From the NCBI GenBank assembly GCA_963668175.1, contig OY764159.1, positions 32,001-96,000 on the forward strand: a DNA stretch of 64,000 nt. Reading direction: 5' to 3'. Numbering within the stretch: position 1 is the stretch's first letter; every line of letters starts with the position of its first letter. The notes below the pieces were generated by a model. The model did not search any database, was not told the DNA's origin, and saw only the letters and a program-made list of their open reading frames with translations. Origin of the DNA: Syntrophales bacterium. GTDB lineage: Bacteria; Desulfobacterota; Syntrophia; Syntrophales; PHBD01. Of the stretch, positions 8,188-43,645 are shown piece after piece. Made by a program: the position numbers and the translations under genes.

Positions 8188-10296
8188 TTATGACAATGCT
8201 TCCTTCCTGCTGAGTCTGATCTTGCCCTGTTTATCTATTTCCAGGACCTTGACCTGAATTTCGTCACCTTCTTTGACAATATCGGTGACCTTATTCACCC
8301 GCTCCTTGGCCAACTGAGAAATATGAACCAGGCCTTCCGTTCCCGGGAGAATTTCGACAAAGGCACCGAAATCGACCACTTTCTTGACCGTCCCTTTATA
8401 TATCTTGCCGATCTCGGCATCTTCAGTCAGCCACTTGACCATCGCCACCGCACGTGCCGCCGCTTCTGCATCGCTGGAAGCAATCGTAACGGTTCCATCG
8501 TCTTCCACGTCAATCGTAACACCCGTTTCGCTGATGATCTGGCGAATATTTTTCCCACCGGAACCGATAACGTCCCTCACCTTTTCAGGCCTGACCGATA
8601 CGGTTGTTATTCTCGGTGCATAGGGTGAAATGTCGCCGCGTGGTTCGGCCAGTGTCTCTTTGATTTTCCCGATGATGAAGACTCTGCCGTCGCGGGCCTG
8701 ATAGAGGGCTTTCCGTAAGATGTCTTCACTAAGTTCGTCAATCTTGATGTCCATCTGCATAGCGGTTATACCCTTCTCCGTTCCGCAGACCTTGAAATCC
8801 ATGTCTCCGGCATGGTCTTCATCGCCCAGGATATCCGAAAGAACCACGATATCGTTGCCCTCTTTCAGCAACCCCATAGCGATTCCGGCAACAACATCTT
8901 TTACGGGAACGCCGGCATCCATAAGGGCCAGGCATCCGCCGCAGACCGTCGCCATGGATGACGAGCCGTTGGACGAGAGGATTTCGGAAACGATCCTGAT
9001 CGTATAAGGAAAGGCCTCCTGGGTCGGCAGGATGGGCATCAATGCCCGCCGGGCCAGATTGCCGTGGCCTATTTCCCTTCTGCCAGGGCTCCGGAGCGAC
9101 CTCGCCTCGCCAACACTGTAAGGCGGGAAGTTATAATGAAGCATGAAGGACCGGTGTTCTTCGCCAGCGATATAATCCAGTCTCTGCTGATCGGATGAAG
9201 TGCCCAGTGTAAGCGCGGCAAGTGCTTGGGTCTCACCTCTGTTGAACAGGGCGGAACCATGAGCACGAGGCAGAATTCCTGCTTCGGATGTGATCGGGCG
9301 TATATCTGTAAAAGAACGTCCGTCAATGCGCTTTTTTTCGCGAATGATTTTTTCTCTTAAGATGCGGCGTTCCAGACCCTCGAAAATATTTTGAGCGGCA
9401 CTGGTCAGACCGGCGTCATCGGCAGTTACTGACTTTATAACCTGCTCCCTTAATTGATCTAGCTTCGCGTATCGTTCAAGCTTGATCTTGGTTTCAAAAA
9501 CGTCCCGCAAACCGCCTTCCGCTCCCCCTGTAATGTTTGCCAACAGCGCTTCATCAACAGCAGGAATCACGAACGGTCTCTTCTCTTTGCCAATAGCCTG
9601 TCTCATTCTATCCTGAAGATCGATCATAGGACGAATCGACTCCAGGCCGAACTTGATGGCGTCGACAATGGTGTCTTCATCCATTTCTTTGGCATCACCT
9701 TCCAACATGACCAGGTTCACGTCATAATCTCGTCCGTTGGTGCCGGGAGTAACTTTTCTCCCTACAAGAAAGAGATTGACGTCACTCTGTTCCATTGATG
9801 CCGCGGAAGGGTTGCAGACAAAATTACCGTCAATACGGCCGACACGAACACCGGCAATGGGTCCTTTGAAGGGTATGTTGGATATCTCCAGAGCGGCTGA
9901 AGCCGCCAGCATAGCAGCCACATCGGAATCATTTTCACCATCAACGGAAAGCACTGTAGCTACCAGTTGGGTTTCAAAGTAATAACCCTTGGGGAAAAGG
10001 GGGCGTATAGACCGGTCGATAATCCTTGATGTCAGAACCTCACGCTCATTGAGCCTGCCTTCTCTCTTAAAAAAACCACCGGGGATCTTACCTGCGGCAT
10101 AAGTCATTTCCTGGTAATCCACTGTCAACGGCAGAAAGTCCAGCCCTTCCCTGGCCGACTTGACGGAAACAGCCGTAACCAATACGACGGTATCTCCATA
10201 AGTGGCAAGGATTGCGCCATTGGCCTGTTCCGCCATGTATTGCGCTTTCAGGGAGATGGGTCGCCCTGCAAAATCTTCACTAAATACTTTACTCAT
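8188..10296 (-). CDS. pnp: Polyribonucleotide nucleotidyltransferase
   Basis: GKIPGGFFKREG, RREIGHG, GDMDFKV, KH and S1 domains. Confidence 0.98.
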   Translation of the reverse strand: MSKVFSEDFAGRPISLKAQYMAEQANGAILATYGDTVVLVTAVSVKSAREGLDFLPLTVDYQEMTYAAGKIPGGFFKREGRLNEREVLTSRIIDRSIRPLFPKGYYFETQLVATVLSVDGENDSDVAAMLAASAALEISNIPFKGPIAGVRVGRIDGNFVCNPSAASMEQSDVNLFLVGRKVTPGTNGRDYDVNLVMLEGDAKEMDEDTIVDAIKFGLESIRPMIDLQDRMRQAIGKEKRPFVIPAVDEALLANITGGAEGGLRDVFETKIKLERYAKLDQLREQVIKSVTADDAGLTSAAQNIFEGLERRILREKIIREKKRIDGRSFTDIRPITSEAGILPRAHGSALFNRGETQALAALTLGTSSDQQRLDYIAGEEHRSFMLHYNFPPYSVGEARSLRSPGRREIGHGNLARRALMPILPTQEAFPYTIRIVSEILSSNGSSSMATVCGGCLALMDAGVPVKDVVAGIAMGLLKEGNDIVVLSDILGDEDHAGDMDFKVCGTEKGITAMQMDIKIDELSEDILRKALYQARDGRVFIIGKIKETLAEPRGDISPYAPRITTVSVRPEKVRDVIGSGGKNIRQIISETGVTIDVEDDGTVTIASSDAEAAARAVAMVKWLTEDAEIGKIYKGTVKKVVDFGAFVEILPGTEGLVHISQLAKERVNKVTDIVKEGDEIQVKVLEIDKQGKIRLSRKEALS

Positions 10297-20633: not shown

Positions 20634-21428
20634 TCAGTCAAGGGCCTGTCTGATTTGACCGATGTAGGAGGCGACAAGAGCGGGAAGCTCTTTTCTGCCG
20701 GCGTTATCGGCAACCATCCGGACAAGGGCGCTGCCTATGACGATACCGTCCGCCAGCGGGGCGATCTCCGCCGCCTGTTCGGGTGTGGAAATACCGAAGC
20801 CGGCAACGACGGGCAGATTCGTGAGGCCCTTGATCCGTTTCACATCCGCATCAACGGACAGAGCATCGGGCCGGGCCGTACCCGTTACGCCCGTAATGGT
20901 GATGTAATAAAGAAACCCTTTCGCCCGGGAGACGATCCTGCCTATCCTCGTATCGTCCGTGGTCGGAGCGATGAGCGAGATGAAGTCTATACCTGCCCGG
21001 TCGGTGTGACGACGCAGTTCCGCAGATTCCTCGGGAGGAAGATCGACGAGGAGAATGCCGTCCACTCCTGCTGCTTTTGCCGCGGCGGCAAAAGCTTCAC
21101 AGCCGAAACGGTAGACGGGATTATAATAACCAAAAAGAACAATCGGTATCTCGCACTGCCTGCGCACCGACGCGATCATCTGCAGGGCGGCCTCCAGGGT
21201 GACGCCGTTTTGGAGAGACCGGTGCGAAGCCGCCTGAATGACCGGCCCATCGGCTGTAGGATCGGAGAAAGGGACGCCGATCTCCAGAATATCGACGCCG
21301 GCGCGATTAAGTTCGGTAATTAGAGCTTCGGTAGTCGCAAGCGACGGGTCCCCGGCCGTCAGATAAACGACCAATGCCTTTCTTTTCTCTTTTTTCAGTC
21401 TTGCGAACGTTCGATCTATCCTGTTCAT
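20634..21428 (-). CDS. trpA: Tryptophan synthase alpha chain
   Basis: [30 protein letters not shown]. Confidence 0.98.
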
Positions 21429-22624
21429 GATTCAAGCCCCTCCCTCTGCTTGGCGATGACTTCGGCATCCTTGTCCCCTCTTCCGGACAGATTCACGATG
21501 ATGATTTTGTCCCTTCCGAGCGCGGGCGCAAGCTTCACGGCATAAGCGACGGCATGGGCGCTCTCCAGGGCGGGGATGATGCCTTCCAGCCGGGAAAGGG
21601 CCATGAACGCTTCCACCGCTTCGGCATCCGTTACGTTCAGATACTCGGCACGCCCCGTATCGCTGAAGTAGCTGTGCTCGGGACCGACTCCGGGGTAATC
21701 GAGGCCCGCGGCGATGGAATAGGCGTCCCGAATCTGTCCGAATGCATCCTGCAGGAGATACGTCCTGTTTCCGTGAAGCACGCCGACGCTTCCCGCCGAT
21801 ATGCTGGCGGAATGGAGGCCTGTCTCAATCCCTCTCCCCGCTGCTTCCACGCCCACCAGTTTTACGTGCTTTTCATTTCTGAAAGGATAGAAGAGTCCCA
21901 TGGCATTGCTGCCCCCGCCCACACAGGCGACGAGTACATCCGGGAGCCTGCCTTCCTTCTGCAAAATCTGTTTCTTCGTCTCGCGTCCGATGATGCTCTG
22001 GAAATTACGGACCATCATCGGGTAGGGATGAGGCCCCGCCGTTGTCCCGATGACGTAGAACGTATCGCGAACCGCCGAAACCCAGTAACGCATGGCCTCG
22101 CTCATGGCGTCCTTCAGTGTCGCCGTTCCCGCTTTAACGGGAATCACGTCCGCCCCGAGGATCTTCATACGAAAGACATTCGGCGCCTGTCTCCTGATGT
22201 CTTCCTCCCCCATGAAAATCTTGCATCCCATGCCGAATAGGGCGGCAACCGTCGCCGTGGCGACGCCGTGCTGGCCGGCCCCCGTTTCCGCAATGACCCT
22301 GGTCTTCCCCATATAGCGGGCCAGGAGGGCCTGGCCCAGGGTGTTGTTGATCTTGTGGGAACCGGTATGGTTGAGGTCTTCCCTTTTGAGGTATATCCTG
22401 GCGCCGCCCAGCTTCTCCGTAAGGCGCCGGGCGAAATACAACGGCGTAGGACGGCCCGCATAATCGCGGACAAGAGAGGCAAAATTGTCTCGAAACGTTT
22501 TATCATTGTGCATCTGCCTATACGCTTCTTCCAGTTCCAGGAGCGCCGGCATCAAAGTCTCGGCAGCATACCGCCCTCCGAATATCCCGAAGTGCCCCTT
22601 CCTGTCCGGTAAATGTTTCGTCAT
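21425..22624 (-). CDS. trpB: Tryptophan synthase beta chain
   Basis: [34 protein letters not shown]; start placed at MTKHL. Confidence 0.98.
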
Positions 22625-23280
22625 GGCTCCCTCCTGAATAATCCGGCTTCTCCACACGATGACCTGTCTTTCTCCCGGATCATTTTTATGATTCTCGCTA
22701 TTTTATCATGATCCTTCTTACCGGGGCCCGTTTCCACCCCGCTGTTGATGTCGACGGCGGACGGCGAAACGCGTTCGATGGCCGCCAGGACATTGCCTTC
22801 ATTCAAACCGCCGGCCAGGATCAACCGGCGCTTCGTCGCCAGTTGCCCGGCAAAGTCCCAGTCGGAGAGTTTTCCTGTCCCGCCGAACCGGTCGCCTTCA
22901 CGGGCATCCACCAGAAAGGCCTGCACCGCGTATTCCTCAATGGCCGACGACACGCCATCCTTGACGGCCGAAACGGCCTTGATGAGCCGGGACGGATCAA
23001 AATGGCGGCAATAGGCAGGGGATTCGTCGCCATGAAGTTGTATGAAGTCCAAGCCGCATGAGTCCGCAATCCCAAGGACCTCCTCTTCCGGCTGATTGAC
23101 AAAAACACCGACGCGGGCAACCGACGCGGGAAGCATGGCGATGATGTCCTTTGCCACCGCCGGGGAGATATACCGGGGCGATCGGGGATAAAAAATGAAT
23201 CCCAGGGCGTCTGCGCCGCAGGTTGCCGCATATCGGGCGTCCCCGATATTCGTCATTCCGCATATCTTGATGGCCGTCAT
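22621..23280 (-). CDS. trpF: Phosphoribosylanthranilate isomerase
   Basis: KICG, QLHGDE, GGTG, LAGGL, DINSGVE. Confidence 0.96.
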
Positions 23281-24050
23281 CGTCCTGTCAGCTCCTTCAG
23301 TTTCATCCCCGCATCCGGCGCCGTTACCAGCACTTCGCCGACCAGAAAGGCATGGATACCGGCCCTCATCAGTTTTTCGATATCGCCGCGTCCGTGGATG
23401 CCGCTTTCGCTCACGATGACGCGGTCACCCGGGACAAGGGCCGCCATTTCCAGGGAAACGCCGATGTCCGTTTTAAACGTCTGCAGGTCCCTGTTGTTGA
23501 TCCCTACGATCTCCGCCCCGGCTTCAAGCGCCCGCTCCAGTTCAGGGCGGGTATGGACCTCGACGAGGGAAGACATCGTCAAGGAATGGGCCAAGGCCAT
23601 ATAGTCCGTCAGCTGATGATCATCAAGGACGGCTGCGATGAGAAGGACGGCATCCGCCCCCGCGACCCTCGCCTCGTAGAACTGATAGGGGTCGATGATA
23701 AAATCCTTTCTCAAAACGGGAATGGCAACCCTTCGGCTCACGTCCTCAAGATCTTCGATACGGCCGCTGAAAAACGGCCCGTCCGTCAAGACCGAAATGG
23801 CCGCCGCACCGTTCTTCCCGTAGATCTCGGCCATGCATACGGCATCCATGTCGCCACGCAGAAATCCCTTGGAAGGCGACCGCCGTTTGATTTCGGCGAT
23901 AATCGCACATGTCGTGCCCTGCAGCGCCGACTTAAAATCGCGCGCCGGCTTCACAACCGAGGCTGCTTCCCGTATGCACGCCTCTGGTTTCCGCGCCTTC
24001 AGACGTCCGACCTCCTCTTTCTTCGCGCTGATAATATCGTCTAATATCAT
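23277..24050 (-). CDS. trpC: Indole-3-glycerol phosphate synthase
   Basis: IAEIKRRSPSKG, LRKDFI, GINNRDL, SESGI; start placed at MILDD. Confidence 0.97.
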   Translation of the reverse strand: MILDDIISAKKEEVGRLKARKPEACIREAASVVKPARDFKSALQGTTCAIIAEIKRRSPSKGFLRGDMDAVCMAEIYGKNGAAAISVLTDGPFFSGRIEDLEDVSRRVAIPVLRKDFIIDPYQFYEARVAGADAVLLIAAVLDDHQLTDYMALAHSLTMSSLVEVHTRPELERALEAGAEIVGINNRDLQTFKTDIGVSLEMAALVPGDRVIVSESGIHGRGDIEKLMRAGIHAFLVGEVLVTAPDAGMKLKELTGR

Positions 24051-24058
24051 CGCCACTC

Positions 24059-25069
24059 TCAACTGTTCGTCATCTCGATCAGGGCCTGCAGTTTCTTCAC
24101 GGCCGATCCGTTGTCGATACATTCCTCGGCGAGGGCCACCGCATCGCCGATAGACGAGGCCTTGTTGCCCGCCATAATGGCCAAACCGGCGTTGAGGACG
24201 ACGATCTTTCTCCGTGCGCCGTCATGTCCGGTAAGAATGTCCCGGGTGATCTGGGCGTTGACCGTGGCATCGCCGCCGGCGAGTTCTTTCCCTGGATAGG
24301 TCGCCCCGAATATTTCCCTGGGGTTGATGTTGTACGTGCTGATCAGGCCGTCCTTCAATTCGGACACCCTCGTTTCTCCGGTCACGGTGGCCTCGTCGAG
24401 CCCGTCGGACCCATGGACGATGAAGGCCCTCCTGGTGCCGAGATTTTTTAAGACGCCCGCAAACATTTCCGTAAGCTTGGCATCGTAAACGCCGATGAGC
24501 TGGGACGTGGCTCCGGCCGGATTGGTCAAGGGACCCAGCATGTTGAAAACGGTCCTGATACCGATCTCCCTCCGGGGGCCGATGGCATACTTCATGGCGC
24601 CGTGGAGACGCGGCGCAAACAGGAAACCGATGCCGATCTGCTGGATGCATTCCTCGACGATCTCCGGTCCCGCGTCGATATTGACGCCCAGGGCCTCAAG
24701 GAGGTCGGCGCTTCCGCAGCTGCTCGAGACGGCCCGGTTGCCGTGTTTGGCCACCGTCAAACCCGCTGCTGCAACAACAAAAGCGGCCGTCGTCGAAATA
24801 TTGAAAGTGTTGCTCCCGTCGCCACCGGTGCCGCATGTATCGACGATCTCGGAAGAACGGGCATCAATGCGGGTCGCTTTCTGCCGCATGATCCGTGCTG
24901 CGCCGGTCACCTCGTCCACCGTTTCTCCCTTGATCCGGAGAGCCGTTATAAAGGCTGCGATCTGGGCAGGGGTCGCCTTGCCTTCCATGATTTCGTTCAT
25001 AACCTCCATCGTAACCGCTTCACTGAGGTCCTCCTGCCGGACCAGTTTGGCCAGGGCTTCTTTGATCAT
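24059..25069 (-). CDS. trpD: Anthranilate phosphoribosyltransferase
   Basis: [23 protein letters not shown]; start at MIKEAL overlaps the trpG stop. Confidence 0.97.
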
Positions 25070-25653
25070 TGCAGCAACTCCTTTCTCATATAGGTGTCCA
25101 GGAAATTCTTGATCAGTCTCTTCCCGTTCGGGGTCAGGATCGATTCGGGATGGAACTGGATGCCCTCGACGGGATACTGTTTGTGCCTCAATCCCATGAT
25201 TTCCTTTTCCGCCGTCTCGGCACTGATCTCCAGGCAGGCGGGCAGCGTATCCCTTGCGACAATAAGGGAATGATAACGGCCCGCGATCATCGGGTTGGGC
25301 AGGCCTTTGAAAATCGTCTGGCCGTCGTTTAAGACCGGGGACGTCTTGCCATGCATCAGCCTGTCGGCCCGGACCACGCATCCGCCGAAGGCATAACCGA
25401 TAGCCTGATGCCCCAGGCACACCCCCATCATCGGAATCCTTTGATGGAAGTGACGGATAACGTCGACAGAGATCCCCGCTTCTTCCGGCGAACAGGGACC
25501 GGGCGAGAGGAAGATGGCGTCCGGTGCCAGGGTTTCGATTTCCTCGAGGGTCGTTTCATCGTTTCTTCGAACCACTACCTTCTCGCCCAGTTGCCCCAGA
25601 TACTGAACGAGATTGTAGGTAAACGAATCGTAATTATCGATCATCAATATCAT
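25066..25653 (-). CDS. trpG: Anthranilate synthase component II
   Basis: [24 protein letters not shown]. Confidence 0.96.
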
Positions 25654-25656
25654 TGC

Positions 25657-27153
25657 TTATCCTCCGTTTGATACGATTTCAAAACCGTTTTCCGCAAGCC
25701 GGATAGCCTGTCTCAACGCCTCGGCCTTGCTCAGACATTCCCGATGTTCGCCTTCCGGATCGGAATCGGCGACGATGCCGGCCCCCGCCTGAATGACGAT
25801 CTTTCCATCCTTGATCATGATCGTCCGGATGGTGATGCAGAAGTCCATGTTGCCCGTAAAGCTGAAGTATCCGACGGCTCCCCCGTAAGGACCCCGCTTG
25901 CATGGTTCCAGCTCTTCGATGATTTCCATGGCCCTGATTTTGGGCGCCCCGGTAAGCGTACCGGCCGGGAAAGCGGCCCTAAGGACATCGAAGGCATCCA
26001 TGCCGTCCTCAAGCTGGGCCTGAACATTGGAGACCAGGTGCATGACATGGGAATAGCGCTCCACGGCCATCAATTGCGTTACCTGAACGCTGCCGATACG
26101 GGCGATCCTTCCCAGGTCGTTCCTGCCCAAATCGACCAGCATGACATGCTCCGCTCTCTCCTTGGGATCGTTGAGAAGCTCGTCAGCATTTTTCCGGTCT
26201 TCCTGCTCGGTCGTCCCCCTCTTTTTCGTCCCCGCGATCGGTTTCAATTCCACAACGCCCTCTTCGAGGCGGACCATGACCTCCGGCGACGACCCGACAA
26301 GCGTTAATTCGTCGGTGCGGATAAAGAAGAGATAGGGCGAGGGATTCGTATAACGCAGCGCCCGGTAGAGTTGAATGGGATCGATACCGTTTTCGCCTTC
26401 GAAACGTTGCGAGATAACGACCTGAATGATATCGCCGGCGACGATGTATTCCTTGGCTTTAGCGACCATGGCGCGATATTCTTCCGGCGCAACATTGGAC
26501 TGGAGTCTGATCGGCTCGGCGGATTCGCTCCGCCGGACGGCGGAATCCATCGGCGTGGTCAAGAGAACGACCATATCGTCGATCTTCCGGACAGCATCGT
26601 CGTAGGCCGACCGCAGATCGTCCGCCTCGTCGGTCGCGGCACAGGCGACCACTTTGATGGTATGGCGGATATTATCGAAAATGATGAGCGTATCGGTGAT
26701 CATGAACACGGCATCCGCTTCGGGACCGGTCTTTTTCAAATCCGGCAGACGCTCGAAATGGCGCACCATGTCGTAACCGAGAAATCCCACGGCCCCGCCG
26801 TAAAAGCGAGGAAGGCCGGGAACGGTGACGGGATGGTAGTCGTCCATGATATTCTTCAATATTTTCATGGGATTCCCTTCATGGGGAACCTTCCGGGAAT
26901 CTCCATTCTTCAAGATATGAACCTCACCGCCCACGACCTTAAAGATCAAATAGGGGTTGGCGCCCAGAAAAGTGTACCGGCCCCATTTTTCACCCCCTTC
27001 GACGCTCTCCAGAAGAAAAAGGTGGGGACACAAGCGAAGCTTCATGAGCGCGGAAACGGGCGTTTCCATATCGGCGATGATTTCCCGATAGATGGGGATC
27101 AGATTACCCTGGGCGGACATGGTGCCGAATGTTTCAAATGTCGGATAATACAT
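25657..27153 (-). CDS. trpE: Anthranilate synthase component I
   Basis: LLESVEGG, NPSPY, KERAEHVMLVDLGRND, GAPKIRAM; start placed at MYYPT. Confidence 0.97.
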   Translation of the reverse strand: MYYPTFETFGTMSAQGNLIPIYREIIADMETPVSALMKLRLCPHLFLLESVEGGEKWGRYTFLGANPYLIFKVVGGEVHILKNGDSRKVPHEGNPMKILKNIMDDYHPVTVPGLPRFYGGAVGFLGYDMVRHFERLPDLKKTGPEADAVFMITDTLIIFDNIRHTIKVVACAATDEADDLRSAYDDAVRKIDDMVVLLTTPMDSAVRRSESAEPIRLQSNVAPEEYRAMVAKAKEYIVAGDIIQVVISQRFEGENGIDPIQLYRALRYTNPSPYLFFIRTDELTLVGSSPEVMVRLEEGVVELKPIAGTKKRGTTEQEDRKNADELLNDPKERAEHVMLVDLGRNDLGRIARIGSVQVTQLMAVERYSHVMHLVSNVQAQLEDGMDAFDVLRAAFPAGTLTGAPKIRAMEIIEELEPCKRGPYGGAVGYFSFTGNMDFCITIRTIMIKDGKIVIQAGAGIVADSDPEGEHRECLSKAEALRQAIRLAENGFEIVSNGG

Positions 27154-27182
27154 GTTGGTTTCCTCATTCCGATGCAAAAAAT

Positions 27183-27215
27183 AAAAAAAGGCCGCGATTT
27201 TCGATCACGGCCTTT
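27183..27215 (-). terminator. trp leader terminator 2
   Basis: AAAGGCCGUGAU-CGAAA-AUCGCGGCCUUU with a U7 tract. Confidence 0.8.
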
Positions 27216-27232
27216 CTGTTTAGCTTAAAAGC

Positions 27233-27266
27233 AAAAAAGCCGTGGAGAGCAGGCTCTCCACGGCTT
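27233..27266 (-). terminator. trp leader terminator 1
   Basis: Perfect stem AAGCCGUGGAGAG / CUCUCCACGGCUU with a U6 tract. Confidence 0.88.
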
Positions 27267-27289
27267 ACAGTCTATCTAAGGAACAAACT

Positions 27290-27361
27290 TCAGCAGCGGA
27301 CGAACCCCTCCCGAGATTTCCGCCACCACCAGCTTCCGATTGACGACATAACCTGAATCAT
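27290..27361 (-). CDS. trpL: trp operon leader peptide MIQVMSSIGSWWWRKSREGFVRC
   Basis: 23-aa ORF with three tandem TGG codons and a GAGG RBS, directly upstream of the terminators and trpE. Confidence 0.88.
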   Translation of the reverse strand: MIQVMSSIGSWWWRKSREGFVRC

Positions 27362-27413
27362 TTAAAAACCTCTTAACACTCTTCAACAACGAATAAACTA
27401 TCTGTTACGAATA

Positions 27414-27442
27414 GATTTAGCAAAATCCCGGAAGTCTGTCAA
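27414..27442 (-). promoter_or_regulatory. Sigma70-type promoter for the trp leader
   Basis: TTGACA-17 nt-TAAATC with an extended -10 TG. Confidence 0.6.
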
Positions 27443-27474
27443 TAAATAATTCGCATGATCATGTGTGATTGAGA

Positions 27475-27503
27475 TTGACAGGCCATAGCTAATCGCCTAT
27501 AAT
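27475..27503 (+). promoter_or_regulatory. Consensus sigma70 promoter for the PAS-GGDEF gene
   Basis: TTGACA-17 nt-TATAAT, perfect consensus. Confidence 0.8.
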
Positions 27504-27579: not shown

Positions 27580-29634
27580 ATGAAAACGGACCATCGCCCC
27601 TTGCAACACATGACTGATCGAAGACAGCGGGACATATTCCGTGTTTTAACGGACGGCATGCGGGATATCGCCATCTGCATCTGCCAGAATGATTCCATAC
27701 GCTATTCCAGTCTGGGCATGGAAAAGCTTACGGGTTACACCAACCGGGAGCTTACGGGTATGAACCTTTGGGACATGGTCCATCCCGATTTCAGGGAACT
27801 GGTCAGAGCCCGCGGCTACGCCTGTCAGCGGGGAAAGCTCTTTGCGACAAAGCACGAGTTCATCATGTTCGATAAAGAAGGCAATGAGCATTGGGTGGAC
27901 TTTTCCGGCGGTTATATCGAGTACGACAACGAGCCGGCAGCCGTCGTCATCCTGTCGGATATTACCGAGCATAAAGAAGCCCTGCAGGCGCTTCAATCCA
28001 GCGAAGAGAAATATCGGAATCTTGTCGAGCAGGCAAACGACGGCATCGTCATCGTCCAGGACGGACTTATCGAGTATGCCAACGGTCACGCCGCCGAGAC
28101 ATTCGGCTACCGCCTGGACGAATTCATGGGGCAGCCCTTCTCCATCTTAAGCGAATCCGATATCACCTTCAAGCTTGCCGATTGTTACCAGCGCCGCGCC
28201 GCGGGCGAGGATGTCCCGCAGATATTCGAAGCGGTCGGGAGACACAAGAACGGCCGCCCTCTTTCCCTGGAGTACAATGTCGTCCTGACCATCTATCAGG
28301 AAAAGGCCGCCACGCTCGTCCAGATCAGGGACGTAGGTGAACACAGGAAAGTCGATCGGGAACTTAACGAAAGCCAGGAGAAATTCAGGATACTCGCAGA
28401 AACCGCGGCAGCAGCCATATTCATCTTCAAGAAAGACCGGTTCTATTACGCCAATCCGACGATGGAAAAAGTGACAGGATACAACTCTCAGGAACTGCAG
28501 AACCTCAAATTCACCGATCTCGTCCATGAACGCTTCCGGGGACACATCCAAACCTGTACCGAAGCTTCGCTGAAGGGCGATGCCGTTTCGGGCTGCGAAC
28601 TCATCCTTGTCGATAAGAACGGCCGGGAGCACTGGATAGACTATCATGCCGGCTCGATCGAATATGAAGGAGAACCGGCCGTCATCGGCACCGCTTACGA
28701 TATTACCGAACTCAAGAAAGCGGCCGAGGATCTCCGGGAAGGGGAGAAAAGATACCGGCTCCTCGTCGAGTCCCTCCAGGGAGGGATCTGGGTGATCGAC
28801 AAAGACGCCCGGACAACCTATGTCAATCCCTGTATGGCCGAAATGCTGGGATACACCGTGGAAGAGATGATCGGCAAAGGTCTCTACTCCTTTATGGACG
28901 ATGTCGGCGTCGAGGTCTGCAAGCGGAACATGGAACGCCGCCAGCAGGGCATCAAGGAGCTGCATGATTTTGAATTCTTGCGGAAGGACGGCCGGCGGCT
29001 CTACGCCAACTTCGAGACAACCCAGATTACGAACGAAGAGGGCGTCCACATCGGAACAATCGCCGGCGTTATGGATATCACCGCCCGGAGGCGCACGGAG
29101 GAGATCATCATCAAGATGGCCTATCACGACGCCCTAACTGGGCTTCCCAACCGTATGCTCTTCAAGGACCGGCTGACGATGGCCATGTCGTACGCCAACC
29201 GCCACCGAAAAGAAGTGGCCGTTATGATGCTCGATCTAGACAAATTCAAGGAAGTCAACGACACGCTCGGTCATTCCGTGGGCGATCTGCTTTTAAAATC
29301 GGTCGCGGAGCGCCTGCTGCTTTTGCTGCGGATGAACGATACCGTGGCCCGCATCGGGGGCGACGAATTCATGATCGTCCTCCCTGAAATATCGAACCCC
29401 CAAGACGTAAGCGTCATCGCCCAGAAGCTGATCCGGTCTTTCGAAACGCCCTTCGTCTGCGACGATCACGAGCTGAAAATCACGACCAGCATCGGCATCG
29501 CCCTTTACCCCACCGACGGGAAGGATGTGGACACCCTGATCAAGTACGCCGATATGGCCATGTACGGCGCCAAAGCGACGGGCAGAAATGCCTACCGCTA
29601 TTACGGCGATTCCGGAAAATCTCCGGGTGCCTGA
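27580..29634 (+). CDS. Multi-PAS (about 4) diguanylate cyclase
   Basis: Repeated PAS/PAC segments; HDALTGLPNR, RMND I-site, GGDEF. Confidence 0.93.
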   Translation: MKTDHRPLQHMTDRRQRDIFRVLTDGMRDIAICICQNDSIRYSSLGMEKLTGYTNRELTGMNLWDMVHPDFRELVRARGYACQRGKLFATKHEFIMFDKEGNEHWVDFSGGYIEYDNEPAAVVILSDITEHKEALQALQSSEEKYRNLVEQANDGIVIVQDGLIEYANGHAAETFGYRLDEFMGQPFSILSESDITFKLADCYQRRAAGEDVPQIFEAVGRHKNGRPLSLEYNVVLTIYQEKAATLVQIRDVGEHRKVDRELNESQEKFRILAETAAAAIFIFKKDRFYYANPTMEKVTGYNSQELQNLKFTDLVHERFRGHIQTCTEASLKGDAVSGCELILVDKNGREHWIDYHAGSIEYEGEPAVIGTAYDITELKKAAEDLREGEKRYRLLVESLQGGIWVIDKDARTTYVNPCMAEMLGYTVEEMIGKGLYSFMDDVGVEVCKRNMERRQQGIKELHDFEFLRKDGRRLYANFETTQITNEEGVHIGTIAGVMDITARRRTEEIIIKMAYHDALTGLPNRMLFKDRLTMAMSYANRHRKEVAVMMLDLDKFKEVNDTLGHSVGDLLLKSVAERLLLLLRMNDTVARIGGDEFMIVLPEISNPQDVSVIAQKLIRSFETPFVCDDHELKITTSIGIALYPTDGKDVDTLIKYADMAMYGAKATGRNAYRYYGDSGKSPGA

Positions 29635-38373: not shown

Positions 38374-39395
38374 TGCACCCTGATTTCCCTTTTCATAACC
38401 CCCTCTATGATCCTGACCTCGTCCATCATCTGGTAGAACTGTTCCGGCCGCAACGACTGAGGACCGTCGGACATGGCCTTTTCCGGCTCCGGATGGACTT
38501 CGACGATGATTCCATCGGCACCGACGGCGACGGCGGCTCTCGTTAAAGGAAGAACATACTTGGAATAGCCGGCGGCATGAGACGGATCGACGATGACCGG
38601 CAGATGGGTCAGTTCCTTCAGAACGGGAACCGCACTGATGTCGAGGGTGTTGCGCGTTGCCGTCTCGAATGTCCGGATTCCCCGTTCGCAGAGAATCACC
38701 TGCTCGTTGCCGGACGACAGGATATACTCGGCCGACATGAGAAGTTCCTCGATCGTTGTCATCAGTCCTCTTTTCAGGAGCACCGGCTTCTTGGCCTGCC
38801 CGACCTTCTTCAGCAGGGCGAAGTTCTGCACGTTCCGGGCGCCGATCTGGAGGATGTCCGCATAGGCTTCAACGAGGTCCACATCCGTCGTATTCATAAC
38901 CTCGGTGACGACAGGCATGCCCGTCGTCTCCCGGACTTTCTGCAGCAGTTTCAATCCGTCTTCGGCCATTCCCTGAAAACTGTAGGGAGACGTCCTCGGC
39001 TTGAAGGCACCGCCGCGAAGAACGTGGGCGCCCGCCTTCCGCGCGATGTAGGCGCATTCCATGAGCTGCTCGTCGCTCTCGATGGAGCAGGGACCGGCCA
39101 TGACGATGAAGTCCGGGCCGCCGATCTTCAGATCACCCACCTCAATGACGGTATTGCCCTCCTTGACCTCGCGGCTGGCAAGTTTATAGGGCTTGAGAAT
39201 CGGCATAACCTTCTCCACCCCTTCCAGGAATTCCGCCGCCTTCAGATGGGCCTTGCCTCGGTCGTCGCCGACGGCGCCGATGATGGTCCGCTCCACTCCC
39301 CTGGACATGTGGGGATTGTATCCGACCGACTCGATCCACCTTACAACGTTATCTATCTGGCCCTCCGTTGCATTTTTTTTCATTAAAACGATCAT
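38370..39395 (-). CDS. aroF: DAHP synthase, class I-beta, with N-terminal regulatory domain
   Basis: [35 protein letters not shown]; start placed at MIVLMK after a GGAG RBS. Confidence 0.95.
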
Positions 39396-39414
39396 GCTCC
39401 TGACCTCCCCAAAT

Positions 39415-39448
39415 AAAAAGGCCGTGACGTTTTCTGCCGCCACGGCCT
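39415..39448 (-). terminator. aro leader terminator 2
   Basis: AGGCCGUGGCG-GCAGAAAA-CGUCACGGCCU (11 bp) followed by UUUUAUUU. Confidence 0.8.
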
Positions 39449-39454
39449 CAAAAT

Positions 39455-39496
39455 AAAAAAGCCGCGGGCAGTATCACTTTCGATCCACCCGCGGCC
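39455..39496 (-). terminator. aro leader terminator 1
   Basis: GGCCGCGGGUGG ... CUGCCCGCGGCU (12 bp) followed by UUUUUAUUUU. Confidence 0.82.
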
Positions 39497-39517
39497 TATG
39501 TTCTTATGTTATCCTTT

Positions 39518-39622
39518 TCAGATCCTCCTGAACGCCGGGCAGACCGATGCGAAGCTATAATAATAGCTAAACCAGTAGCTAAAGTTAAAGCTTGTTAAAT
39601 CGATCTTTGCGTCCTGCGTCAT
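39518..39622 (-). CDS. aro operon leader peptide MTQDAKIDLTSFNFSYWFSYYYSFASVCPAFRRI
   Basis: 34-aa ORF with 9 aromatic codons (4F, 4Y, 1W) in a 13-codon window, directly upstream of two terminators and aroF. Confidence 0.85.
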   Translation of the reverse strand: MTQDAKIDLTSFNFSYWFSYYYSFASVCPAFRRI

Positions 39623-41064: not shown

Positions 41065-42380
41065 TCACTCGATCTTGCCGGATGATCTGCGGGCGGCATT
41101 CAACCGCACGCTGACGGAGTTGCCGTGGCCGTCGAGACCTTCCAGCGCGGCAAAACGGGCCGTCCGGCGCCCGAACTTCTGCAGGGCTTCTTCCGAATAG
41201 GAGAGGACGCTCGTCCGCTTGATGAAATCATAGACGCCCAAGGGGGAAGAAAACCTGGCCGTGCCGCCCGTCGGCAGGATATGATTGGGACCGGCCGTAT
41301 AATCCCCGAATGCCTCCGGTGTATAATGGCCGAGGAAAATGGCACCGGCGTGTCTGATCTTTTCCATGAGCTTCCCGGGATTTTCGACCATCAACTCCAG
41401 GTGTTCCGGTGCAATGTCATTGGAAATACCGGCGGCCTCGTCCAAATCTCCGGCAATAATGACGGCGCCGTGCGATTCCAGCGCCTGCCGGATGATGTCC
41501 TTCTTGGGAAGGCGCTCCAGTTGGGCATTGACGTCCTTTTTCACCTCGGCAGCGTATGACTCGTCGGTTGTAACGAGAATGGCGCGGGCCATTTCGTCGT
41601 GTTCCGCCTGGGCGATCAGGTCCGCAGCCGCAAAAGCGGCCGGTCCCTTGCCGTCGGCGATAATCAAGACTTCGCTGGGACCGGCGATCATGTCGATATC
41701 CACCGCACCGAATACCAGTTTCTTGGCCGCCGCCACATAAGCGTTTCCCGGTCCGACGATCTTATCCACCCGGGGGATGGATTGCGTACCGTAGGCAAGG
41801 GCTGCCACGGCCTGAGCGCCGCCGACCTTGAATATGCGCGTCACACCTCCGATCCGGGCCGCGGCGGCGATCAGGGGATTCAGATTCCGGCTCTTGACAG
41901 GCGAGACGAGAATAATGTCTTCAACGCCGGCAATCACGGCGGGAATCGCCGCCATCAGGACCGTGGACGGATAAATGGCCAGACCGCCCGGGCATAGATA
42001 CCAACCCTATCCAGCGGCCTGACCCTTTGCCCCACGACCAGACCGTTTCGCTCGCGGATTTCATAGTCCCCTGTCTTCTGTTTTCGGTGAAACGCCCGTA
42101 TGCGTTTCGCGGCCAGGGTCAGAATGGCTTTGTCGTTTCTGGAAACCTCCCCTGCCGCTTTGTCCCACTCTTCCTGCGTCACCTCCACCGTGCGGGCGTC
42201 GAGTTCCTGATGATCGAATCTGGCCGTGTACTTAAAGAGGGCCCCGTCGCCGTTTCGGACGACGTCGTCGATGATGGCGCTCACGGACGACCAGATGCCG
42301 GCGTCGAACATCTCCCGACGTTGACTGATTTCTCGAAAGAAAGCGGCGAAACCGCTGTCGGTTGTCCTGATTGTTTTCAT
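41065..42380 (-). pseudogene. hisD: Histidinol dehydrogenase with a 1-nt frameshift near 41990 (real lesion or sequencing error)
   Basis: The N-terminal part (MKTIRT...PLDRVGIYA) and C-terminal part (IYPSTVLMAAIPA...GPGNAYV, DMIAGPSE, AQAEHD, APEHL) are in different frames; adding one base restores the conserved YxPGG. Confidence 0.85.
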
Positions 42381-42394
42381 GTCGTTACTCCTTA

Positions 42395-43645
42395 TCAGAC
42401 CTTGACGCGGACAATGTCTGCCCCCAGGGCGGAAAATTTCTTTTCGATAGCCTCGTATCCACGATCGAGGTGATAAACCCGGGAGACTTCCGTTTTGCCC
42501 TCTGCGGCAAGGCCGGCCAGGATGAGCGACGCCGAGGCGCGTAAATCGGTCGCCATGACCTGGGCACCCTTCAGCCTGGGAATCCCCCGGACAACGGCCG
42601 TATGACCCTGAATCGTGATGTCGGCTCCCATCCGCATAAGTTCGCTCACATGCATGAAGCGATTTTCGAAGACCGTCTCGGAAATGACGCTCAAACCGCC
42701 GGCCATGGCCATGAGCGCCATGATTTGTGCCTGCAGGTCCGTGGCGAATCCGGGAAAGGGGTGGGTCGTCACATCCACGCTTCTGATTGTGCCGGTGCCG
42801 ATCACCCGCATGCCGCCCTCGACCGGCTGAACTTTCATACCCGCATCCCTTAGTTTGGCGGTCAGGGCATCGACGTGCGACGGCTCGCAACCCATGACCC
42901 TGATATCGCCGCCGGTCATGCCGGCCGCGATCATAAAGGTTCCCGCCTCGATACGGTCGGACATCACCTCGGCGTCATAGGGTTTCAGCCGTTTCACCCC
43001 GTCGATGGTAATGATGTCGGTGCCGGCGCCGCGAATATTGGCCCCCATGCCGTTGAGGACCTCAGCCAAATTGACGATTTCGGGCTCGCGGGCGGCATTT
43101 TTCAGGACGGTTGTCCCGTCGGCCAAAGCCGCGGCCATCATGATATTTTCCGTGCCCGTCACCGTCACGGGATCGAAAAAGATCGTCGCCCCATGCAGCC
43201 TTTTGACATTGGCGACGACATAACCGTCTTTCAAGTCGATTTTCGCCCCCATATCCTCCAGGGCCTTGATATGGAGGTTAACCGGCCTGGCGCCTATGGC
43301 GCAGCCGCCGGGAAGGGACACGCGCGCCTCCCCGGTCCGCGCCACCAATGGGCCCAGAACCAGGATGGAAGCCCGCATGGTCTTCACCAACTCGTAAGAG
43401 GCTTCCGTATTCGATATGTTGCCCGCGTTGATCCGCAAAGGGGGCCCTTCGTCGATCTCGACGCCGAAACTCTTGAGCAGTTTCTTTGTCGTCTGGATAT
43501 CCACCAGATTGGGGATGTTGTGACACGTATTCCATCCGTCGGTCAGAAGCGAAGCAATCATGATCGGCAGGGCGGCGTTTTTCGCGCCGCTGACGCGGAC
43601 ATCACCTTCCAGTCTATGTCCGCCGTTGATAACGATTTTATCCAT
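42395..43645 (-). CDS. murA: UDP-N-acetylglucosamine 1-carboxyvinyltransferase
   Basis: [30 protein letters not shown]. Confidence 0.98.

Follow-up and report, generated by a model that had tools for sequence, protein, structure and literature searches.

In a 64,000-nucleotide stretch of the genome of a Syntrophales bacterium (contig OY764159.1, positions 32,001 to 96,000; referred to here as the window), the tryptophan operon trpEGDCFBA is preceded by a leader that combines a short open reading frame (ORF) containing three consecutive Trp codons with two terminator-like hairpins in series, T1 and T2 (Table 1). Its organization makes it very probable that the operon is under the control of a ribosome-mediated (leader-peptide) transcription attenuator. 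We also consider it fairly likely that this attenuator is composed of six RNA segments rather than the classic four, and the pairing that would link the two terminators (the 3′ arm of T1 with the 5′ arm of T2, referred to here as the relay) is probably functional. The elements and their capacity to pair are observed, with conservation and compensatory changes, in two operons, trp and a nine-gene aro operon in the same window, and in several lineages. On balance we lean towards regarding the trp and aro leaders of the Syntrophales type as a previously undescribed design, in which one ribosome-read sensor would govern two serial terminators through a base-pairing domino.

Organization of the trp leader

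The seven trp genes, each matching an NCBIfam equivalog, lie in the order trpE-trpG-trpD-trpC-trpF-trpB-trpA on the minus strand, and just before them are a ribosome binding site and an ORF with regulatory codons, the arrangement of a leader-peptide attenuator. A terminator scan identified exactly two terminator-like sites at the leader, both of them downstream of the leader ORF and ahead of the first structural gene: T1 (27266-27237, minus strand) combines a 13-bp stem (8 G-C pairs) with the tail UUUUUU, and T2 (27217-27185, minus strand) combines a 14-bp stem with a U-run. The leader ORF and both terminators had been described in a sequence-only reading of this DNA, and all were recovered at the same positions on the minus strand.

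The 251-nt leader folds at -88.3 kcal/mol (z = -4.4), with none of 200 shuffled sequences folding as well, and the structure shows a protector helix over the Trp codons as well as T1 and T2. The 9-bp protector (GGUGGCGGA / UCCGCUGCU) is present both in the minimum free energy (MFE) structure of the full leader and in the isolated fold, as the sequence-only reading had predicted. The 3′ strand of the protector belongs to region 2 (segment 2), which spans the end of the leader ORF including its stop codon, and which has an alternative partner further downstream. When the T1 3′ arm is omitted, region 2 (27307-27292) pairs with the whole of the T1 5′ arm in blocks of 5, 5 and 3 bp with one bulge and one mismatch, matching the helix of about 13 bp noted previously; this antiterminator, AT1, folds at -24.3 kcal/mol and is equalled by one of 300 shuffles of region 2. 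The relay helix (AT2), also noted previously, forms between CACGGCUUUUUU and AGAAAGGCCGUG when the T1 5′ and T2 3′ arms are omitted, at -19.1 kcal/mol (0/300 shuffles as good).

The mechanism that we infer from these helices includes ribosome stalling, an order of folding, kinetic trapping of AT1 and AT2, and an effect on read-through. When Trp is plentiful, or when the leader is not translated, segment 2 would be covered by a ribosome at the stop codon or paired with segment 1, and T1 (segments 3 and 4) would form and halt most polymerases. With segment 4 locked in T1, T2 (segments 5 and 6) would form too and halt the polymerases that had leaked past; because T1 and T2 would act in series, basal read-through would approximate the product of the two leaks. 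When Trp is scarce, the ribosome would presumably stall on UGG-UGG-UGG and leave segment 2 free to pair with the newly made segment 3 (AT1), such that T1 is blocked. The orphaned segment 4 (CACGGC and its U-tract) would then capture the emerging A-rich GGCCGUG segment 5 (AT2), segment 6 would be left without a partner, and the polymerase would pass T2. T2 would have no sensor of its own and would be slaved to T1.

Table 1. Coordinates of the leader elements and operons in the window.
Feature	Coordinates	Strand	Basis
trpEGDCFBA, presumed regulated operon	20634..27153	-	NCBIfam equivalog matches
Likely trp leader promoter: TTGACA (27442-27437), 17-nt spacer, TAAATC (27419-27414)	27414..27442	-	Sequence reading
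Shine-Dalgarno AAGAGG, 7 nt before leader ATG	27374-27369	-	Sequence reading
trpL-like leader ORF, 23 codons, MIQVMSSIGSWWWRKSREGFVRC and stop	27290..27361	-	ORF translation
Three consecutive Trp codons UGG UGG UGG, proposed ribosome stall site	27323..27331	-	Sequence reading; W-run invariant in alignment A1
Segment 1: protector 5′ arm GGUGGCGGA, overlaps Trp codons	27319..27327	-	MFE folds
Segment 2 (region 2): partner of segment 1 (protector) or of T1 5′ arm (antiterminator AT1)	27292..27308	-	Folds and pair counts
Segment 3: T1 5′ arm AAGCCGUGGAGAG	27254..27266	-	Terminator scan, folds
Segment 4: T1 3′ arm and U-tract CUCUCCACGGCUUUUUU	27233..27249	-	Terminator scan, folds
Proposed anti-T2 strand within segment 4: CACGGCUUUUUU	27244-27233	-	Folds
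Segment 5: T2 5′ arm AGAAAGGCCGUGAU; 27217-27206 is the alternative partner of segment 4	27204..27217	-	Terminator scan, folds
Segment 6: T2 3′ arm AUCGCGGCCUUUUU and U-rich tail	27176..27198	-	Terminator scan, folds
aro leader, second instance; leader ORF 39622-39518, MTQDAKIDLTSFNFSYWFSYYYSFASVCPAFRRI and stop	39413..39622	-	ORFs, folds, terminator scan
aro T1	39496-39459	-	Terminator scan
aro T2	39449-39418	-	Terminator scan

Conservation of the helices in related trp leaders

A search with TrpE yielded 80 loci, the best of them from metagenome-assembled genomes of Syntrophales/Syntrophaceae at 62-70% identity, so that the window's own species lies outside the searched collection. The 480 nt upstream of trpE were scanned in all 80 loci, and 42 were also read by eye. 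A leader with a W-run followed by a terminator is present in 16 loci, and in a 17th (L029) the leader is cut by the contig end. Twelve of these 17 have both T1 and T2 (L003, L004, L015, L020, L021, L022, L024, L025, L026, L028, L029, and L030), of which 11 were analysed quantitatively and one, L029, had its T2 recognized by eye only. The automatic terminator finder overlooked T1 of L030 and T2 of L029, both of which have interrupted tails; T1 of L030 was confirmed by folding. The trp set therefore comprises 12 leaders, that of the window and 11 alignable relatives, aligned with MAFFT (alignment A1). MAFFT misplaced the T2 5′ arm of L021, and pairs were therefore also counted on anchor-based blocks.

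In all 12 leaders the protector, AT1, T1, AT2, and T2 are each the MFE structure of their own sub-segment, the protector being formed by the W-run and the 3′ half of region 2; an antiterminator that excludes the terminator and a protector over the regulatory codons are thus common to the set. T1 ranges from -16 to -28 kcal/mol and T2 from -15 to -22 kcal/mol. For the on-state (AT1 and AT2 together, 23 pairs), 97.1% of 274 cells in A1 are paired, compared with 41-57% when the partners are slid by 1-3 columns, and both sides have changed in four pairs (11 cells). None of 500 shuffles matches the paired percentage, the number of double-change cells or the covariation score, and 10/500 match the number of such pairs. 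AT1 is 98.7% paired in A1 and the relay helix alone 95%, with two pairs changed on both sides in each; the unpaired relay cells come mostly from L021. On the anchor-based blocks, the six core relay pairs form in 12/12 leaders and the next four in 12, 12, 11, and 10 of the 12.

All 12 leaders have the same 5′ core in T2, GGCCGUG, whereas the spacer between T1 and T2 varies from 23 to 35 nt, and neither the spacer nor the two loops can be aligned. L003 and L004 have a C in the T1 tail where the others have U, and a G two bases before the T2 core where the others have A. The change makes a C-G pair in the relay and merely a G.U pair in the T2 stem, and so serves the relay only. Among the 12, this relay pair (T13+7:T25-2) is U-A in nine, C-G in two, and U.G in one; the compensatory events are few. 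The sequence-only reading had held the relay to be functional rather than due to chance, and this is borne out to the extent that pairing is kept through substitutions; its argument from a second operon is weakened by a stem core that the terminators of the two operons have in common (see below).

Towards its C-terminus the leader peptide looks conserved (EGFVRC, EGFVHR or GGVCLLP; 27290-27310 in the window, and homologues). This conservation is at the level of the RNA (region 2, GGGGUUYG.CC.C.GC) and not of the peptide, since the pairing persists where the reading differs.

A second leader upstream of the aro operon

The aroF-aroB-pheA-aroD-aroE-aroA-aroK-aroC-tyrA operon, which extends on the minus strand down to 31072, lies behind a leader with a 34-codon ORF rich in Phe, Tyr, and Trp codons (FNFSYWFSYYYSF), followed by its own T1 and T2. 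The leader has the appearance of a mixed aromatic amino acid attenuator, and an aro supraoperon under a mixed Phe/Tyr/Trp leader deserves flagging in its own right. The longest aroF ORF begins with a GTG at 39443, inside aro T2 (39393-39443, minus strand); the ATG at 39395-39393, behind a GGAGG, is the more likely start. Because aro adjoins trp upstream in some of the genomes, five further aro leaders were found within the flanks of the trp loci (L009, L022, L026, L028, and L030), and all five have a Phe/Tyr/Trp leader together with T1 and T2.

The wiring at a second operon proposed in the sequence-only reading is upheld, in that a Phe/Tyr/Trp leader, T1, and T2 are present and pairable in all six aro leaders. 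The same reading described the two leaders as otherwise different in sequence, which is too strong: their terminators have a common GCC(G/A)(U/C)GG stem core, and the trp and aro leaders are therefore not independent in sequence. In the six aro leaders, 95.8% of 168 on-state cells are paired, compared with 29-44% when the partners are slid. At 14 bp, the aro relay helix takes in CGCUGCC:GGCGGCG and extends 6-7 bp beyond the core common to T1 and T2; the T1 and T2 5′ arms differ within this part, which argues that the aro relay is not just a by-product of the common stem. When the window is compared with its five relatives, the aro cores are seen to have changed together, from CCAUGG to CCGCGG in T1 and to CCGUGG in T2, and one relay pair is C-G in the window and U-A in all five relatives.

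Counting both operons, two serial terminators in which the T1 3′ arm and its U-tract can pair with the T2 5′ arm and its A-rich flank are found in the trp and aro leaders of the window, in 11 further trp leaders (L029 counted by eye only), and in five further aro leaders.

The common stem core and the relay duplex

The window contains 21 terminator-like hairpins, of which only the four of the trp and aro leaders have the GCC(G/A)(U/C)GG stem, and these are among the strongest. Across the window and 17 related loci the core lies near the 5′ base of 37 of 89 terminator-like hairpins. The 52 hairpins without it are not leader terminators, as judged from coordinates and sequence, except where a few such terminators were called again in a longer or antisense form; the trp and aro stems are not simply the local style of terminator. 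Of the 16 same-strand tandem terminator pairs in this collection, 15 are trp or aro leaders. One reading of this distribution is that the hairpins are sites for a common trans-acting factor (an RNA-binding protein or a small RNA) that senses aromatic amino acids and controls T2. One stem core in the four terminators of two aromatic operons, and almost nowhere else in the ~0.4 Mb surveyed, would be consistent with such a reader. We nonetheless regard it as improbable, as both leaders already have a ribosome-based sensor with fitting codons, and in four genomes (L022, L026, L028, and L030) the trp core is GCCGUG and the aro core GCCAUG, with T1 and T2 matching inside each operon, which is unfavourable for a single reader; no candidate factor turned up, and no search was aimed at one.

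The six-segment attenuator predicts a particular duplex, T1 3′ arm with T2 5′ arm, which has an energy of -19.8 kcal/mol in the trp leader and -22.1 kcal/mol in the aro leader. These values are reached by 1.2% and 0.27%, respectively, of 1482 pairs assembled at random from 39 other terminator-like hairpins, a small and partly intragenic set that limits the force of the comparison. All 18 leaders have duplex energies within the top 0.1-10% of these pairs. This, and the conservation of pairing in 12 trp and six aro leaders with compensatory changes included, makes it exceedingly unlikely that the complementarity is a chance match between G+C-rich hairpins with U- and A-tracts. Such a match would be suggested by some leaders (L026, L028, and L030) in which up to 56/300 shuffles of the T2 5′ side pair as well, and U-tracts can pair with any A-rich flank; shuffling the T2 5′ arm only is a weak control, however, since the U- and A-tracts re-pair, and it is significant in some leaders and not in others. 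A comparison of duplexes within and between operons is mildly discriminating: the own-operon duplex is better than the cross-operon duplex in 9/10 comparisons, the sole exception being the trp T1 3′ arm of the window.

Distribution of T2 and points against the relay

The chain of Trp codons, region 2, T1 5′ arm, T1 3′ arm, T2 5′ arm, and T2 3′ arm is complete in 12 of the 17 related trp leaders and in 6/6 aro leaders. The sequence-only reading had tied its case to a T2 that is present and pairable in homologous leaders, which it is in these, and it is absent from the remaining five trp relatives. On a TrpE tree, leaders with T1 and T2 are spread over six deep lineages, all in one well-supported clade of 18 rows; the sister pair L045 and L052 has T1 only. 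The simplest reading is that T2 was ancestral to this clade and has been lost two or three times. In L002, an A+T-rich relative, a stretch at ~9915-9955 aligns by eye with T2 (AAAGAACUGUGA...AGCGGAAAUUUUGUUUU) and now forms no hairpin, giving it the look of a decayed T2. Among other loci, L001 lacks a leader and L027 is truncated. Nine more distant short ORFs containing W upstream of trpE (L014, L017, L035, L038, L043, L054, L058, L060, and L063) were taken as spurious; eight have no terminator, and L063 has one, 147 nt upstream.

In Desulfobulbales-like relatives (L005, L006, L010, L013, L018, L032, L033, and L034) there is no Trp leader ORF before trpE, which is preceded, as judged by eye only, by the end of an apparent small ribosomal protein gene. 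These relatives have a strong terminator before trpE with a stem of the GCCAUGG...CCGUGGC type.

Several observations weigh against the six-segment attenuator. T2 is missing in five of the 17 related leaders (L009, L012, L045, L052, and L002) and is thus dispensable. Most relay pairs are invariant, which leaves few events for the covariation, and these come from related sequences; the off-state of the trp leaders is 91.9% paired with covariation not above that of shuffles, and for aro the shuffle control is not significant (90/500, with six sequences only). The trp T1 3′ arm of the window pairs better with the aro T2 5′ arm (-25.2 kcal/mol) than with its own T2 5′ arm (-19.8 kcal/mol), and a stem core common to T1 and T2 would also be expected from duplication, which would explain part of their similarity. 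Lastly, at equilibrium the full leader gives T2 a probability of at least 0.98 and the relay 0.0 in 12/12 leaders, even with the Trp codons masked to mimic a stalled ribosome, and with AT1 enforced T2 is still 3.6-6.2 kcal/mol more stable than AT2 in five of the 12.

Equilibrium folding yields T1 and T2 in every ribosome-mask state, and because it never prefers the relay over these, the relay would be workable only as a kinetic trap. In the other seven of the 12 leaders, once AT1 is enforced, AT2 either betters T2 or falls short of it by no more than 2 kcal/mol, and AT1 itself ranges from 0.3 kcal/mol better to 8.9 kcal/mol worse than T1. In the E. coli trp attenuator, too, the antiterminator has the lower stability and wins over the terminator by forming first, and the kinetic dependence proposed here resembles that of such usual attenuators.

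The strongest of the competing explanations is that the leader is an ordinary trp attenuator (segments 1 to 4) followed by an unregulated fail-safe terminator, the complementarity being a by-product of T2 having been copied from T1. This would account for the GCCGUG/CACGGC core common to both hairpins, for the dispensability of T2 in 5/17 relatives, and for its retention in every equilibrium fold. If constitutive, however, a 14-bp terminator ending in a 7-U tail would throttle the operon just when it is needed, and a fail-safe would not call for an invariant T2 5′ core over six deep lineages in which loops and spacers are unalignable. The L003/L004 change compensates the relay yet weakens T2, and the aro relay is 6-7 bp longer than the common core. 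We therefore view a fail-safe T2 as possible, though unlikely, and continue to favour the six-segment attenuator.

T2 might alternatively lie outside trp regulation altogether, either as a bidirectional terminator or insulator (e.g. against antisense transcription from within trpE) or as the remnant of a mobile repeat. It is flanked by A-rich sequence on the 5′ side and by U-rich sequence on the 3′ side, its reverse complement is called as a terminator in L024 and L025, and repeat elements adjoin it in L024-L030. Against this, the antisense tail in the window is merely UUUCU, T2 in both operons always lies downstream of T1 and upstream of the first structural gene, and its 5′ arm is conserved in register with the T1 3′ arm, so that a role of this kind seems highly improbable. 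The repeats are G+C-rich palindromes (CCCCTC...GGGGAGAGGG-like) between T2 and the trpE start in L024, L025, L026, L027, L028, and L030, and these inserts add 50-170 nt to the leader; in L024 the T2 3′ arm is found a second time, after the repeat insert. A further possibility, that T2 terminates a convergent gene, is ruled out, as the neighbouring gene (27580-29634) is divergent.

Promoters and neighbouring genes

The likely promoter of the trp leader was missing from a promoter scan because its -10 box has C as the final base; TTGACA-N17-TATAAN-like boxes are present at the matching place upstream in relatives. A perfect sigma-70 consensus (TTGACA-17-TATAAT, 12/12) at 27475-27503 on the plus strand points away from the trp leader and faces the divergent gene, which codes for a PAS/GGDEF diguanylate cyclase.

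Elsewhere in the window, hisD follows rho-prfA-prmC-murA and has no his leader. It is apparently split over two frames near 41955 (41065-42890, minus strand), with profile positions 1-96 at the end of ORF 41955-42890 and positions 109-393 in ORF 41065-41955, reflecting either a frameshift or an assembly error.

Relationship to known leaders

At the gathering threshold, an Rfam search of the whole window returned only a tRNA. Trp_leader (RF00513) has no match at E up to 10 in 27100-27480 or up to 0.5 in 27150-27320. The best Rfam match is the trpB motif (RF04312), at 31.8 bits compared with a gathering threshold of 59 and covering only the T1 and T2 hairpins (27178-27262); Thr_leader (RF00506) scores 22.3 bits compared with 55. 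Permissive scans of the trp and aro leaders gave merely sub-threshold generic two-hairpin matches, and the trp leader is outside every Rfam leader family.

Leader-peptide attenuation is a textbook mechanism, to which the relay idea is incremental, and its known natural forms have a single terminator at the end. No leader-peptide attenuator in which two terminators are coupled was found in the full-text literature searched, the scope of which excluded subscription comparative-genomics papers. If the six-segment attenuator is correct, a single sensor would gain dynamic range by chaining alternative helices, and repression would be multiplied (leak by leak) to a lower basal level without a second sensor. 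It would represent a natural two-stage RNA relay, a counterpart of the tandem attenuators built by engineers, and would extend attenuation biology, which is experimentally tractable, to a poorly studied and mostly uncultured anaerobic lineage.

Several described leaders have two hairpins or two terminators in series. The Salmonella mgtCBR leader is reported to have two conditional termination points in series, each with its own sensor (PMC3641672). Tandem attenuators and tandem riboswitches of this kind likewise place two conditional terminations in one leader, but each unit responds on its own through a separate short ORF or aptamer, whereas here one sensor would serve both through base-pairing. 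In some Gammaproteobacteria the rimP-leader has a second terminator in tandem (PMC2965389), and it resembles the trp leader in having two tandem terminators and a potential antiterminator in the 5′ leader; it has no regulatory-codon leader peptide, its stem motifs are described as inverse rather than common, and in the passage concerned no relay between the terminators is proposed. The trpB motif, from Firmicutes and Fusobacteria and sometimes located upstream of trp genes, also has two hairpins, the second an intrinsic terminator, the right shoulder of P1 being described as containing an anti-terminator (PMC11109978). In the passages concerned, P1 is not described as a terminator and no leader peptide is described, and the phyla are different.

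Two further parallels come from enterobacteria. Their trpL (Trp_leader) is alike in having a short ORF with tandem Trp codons and hairpins 1:2, 2:3, and 3:4, among which the ribosome position decides; it differs in having a single terminator and shows no detectable sequence or covariance-model similarity to the leader described here, in which segments 5 and 6 are extra. The his leader of Salmonella and E. coli is reported to alternate between hairpins A:B, C:D, and E:F and hairpins B:C and D:E (Johnston et al. 1980). This is likewise a six-segment domino, in which each strand that is freed flips the hairpin after it, and the codon signal thereby travels through two alternative helices before it reaches a distal terminator. 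The his C:D hairpin reportedly has no U-tract and serves as a relay only, whereas the middle hairpin of the trp leader is a full intrinsic terminator, such that transcription would pass two checkpoints rather than one.

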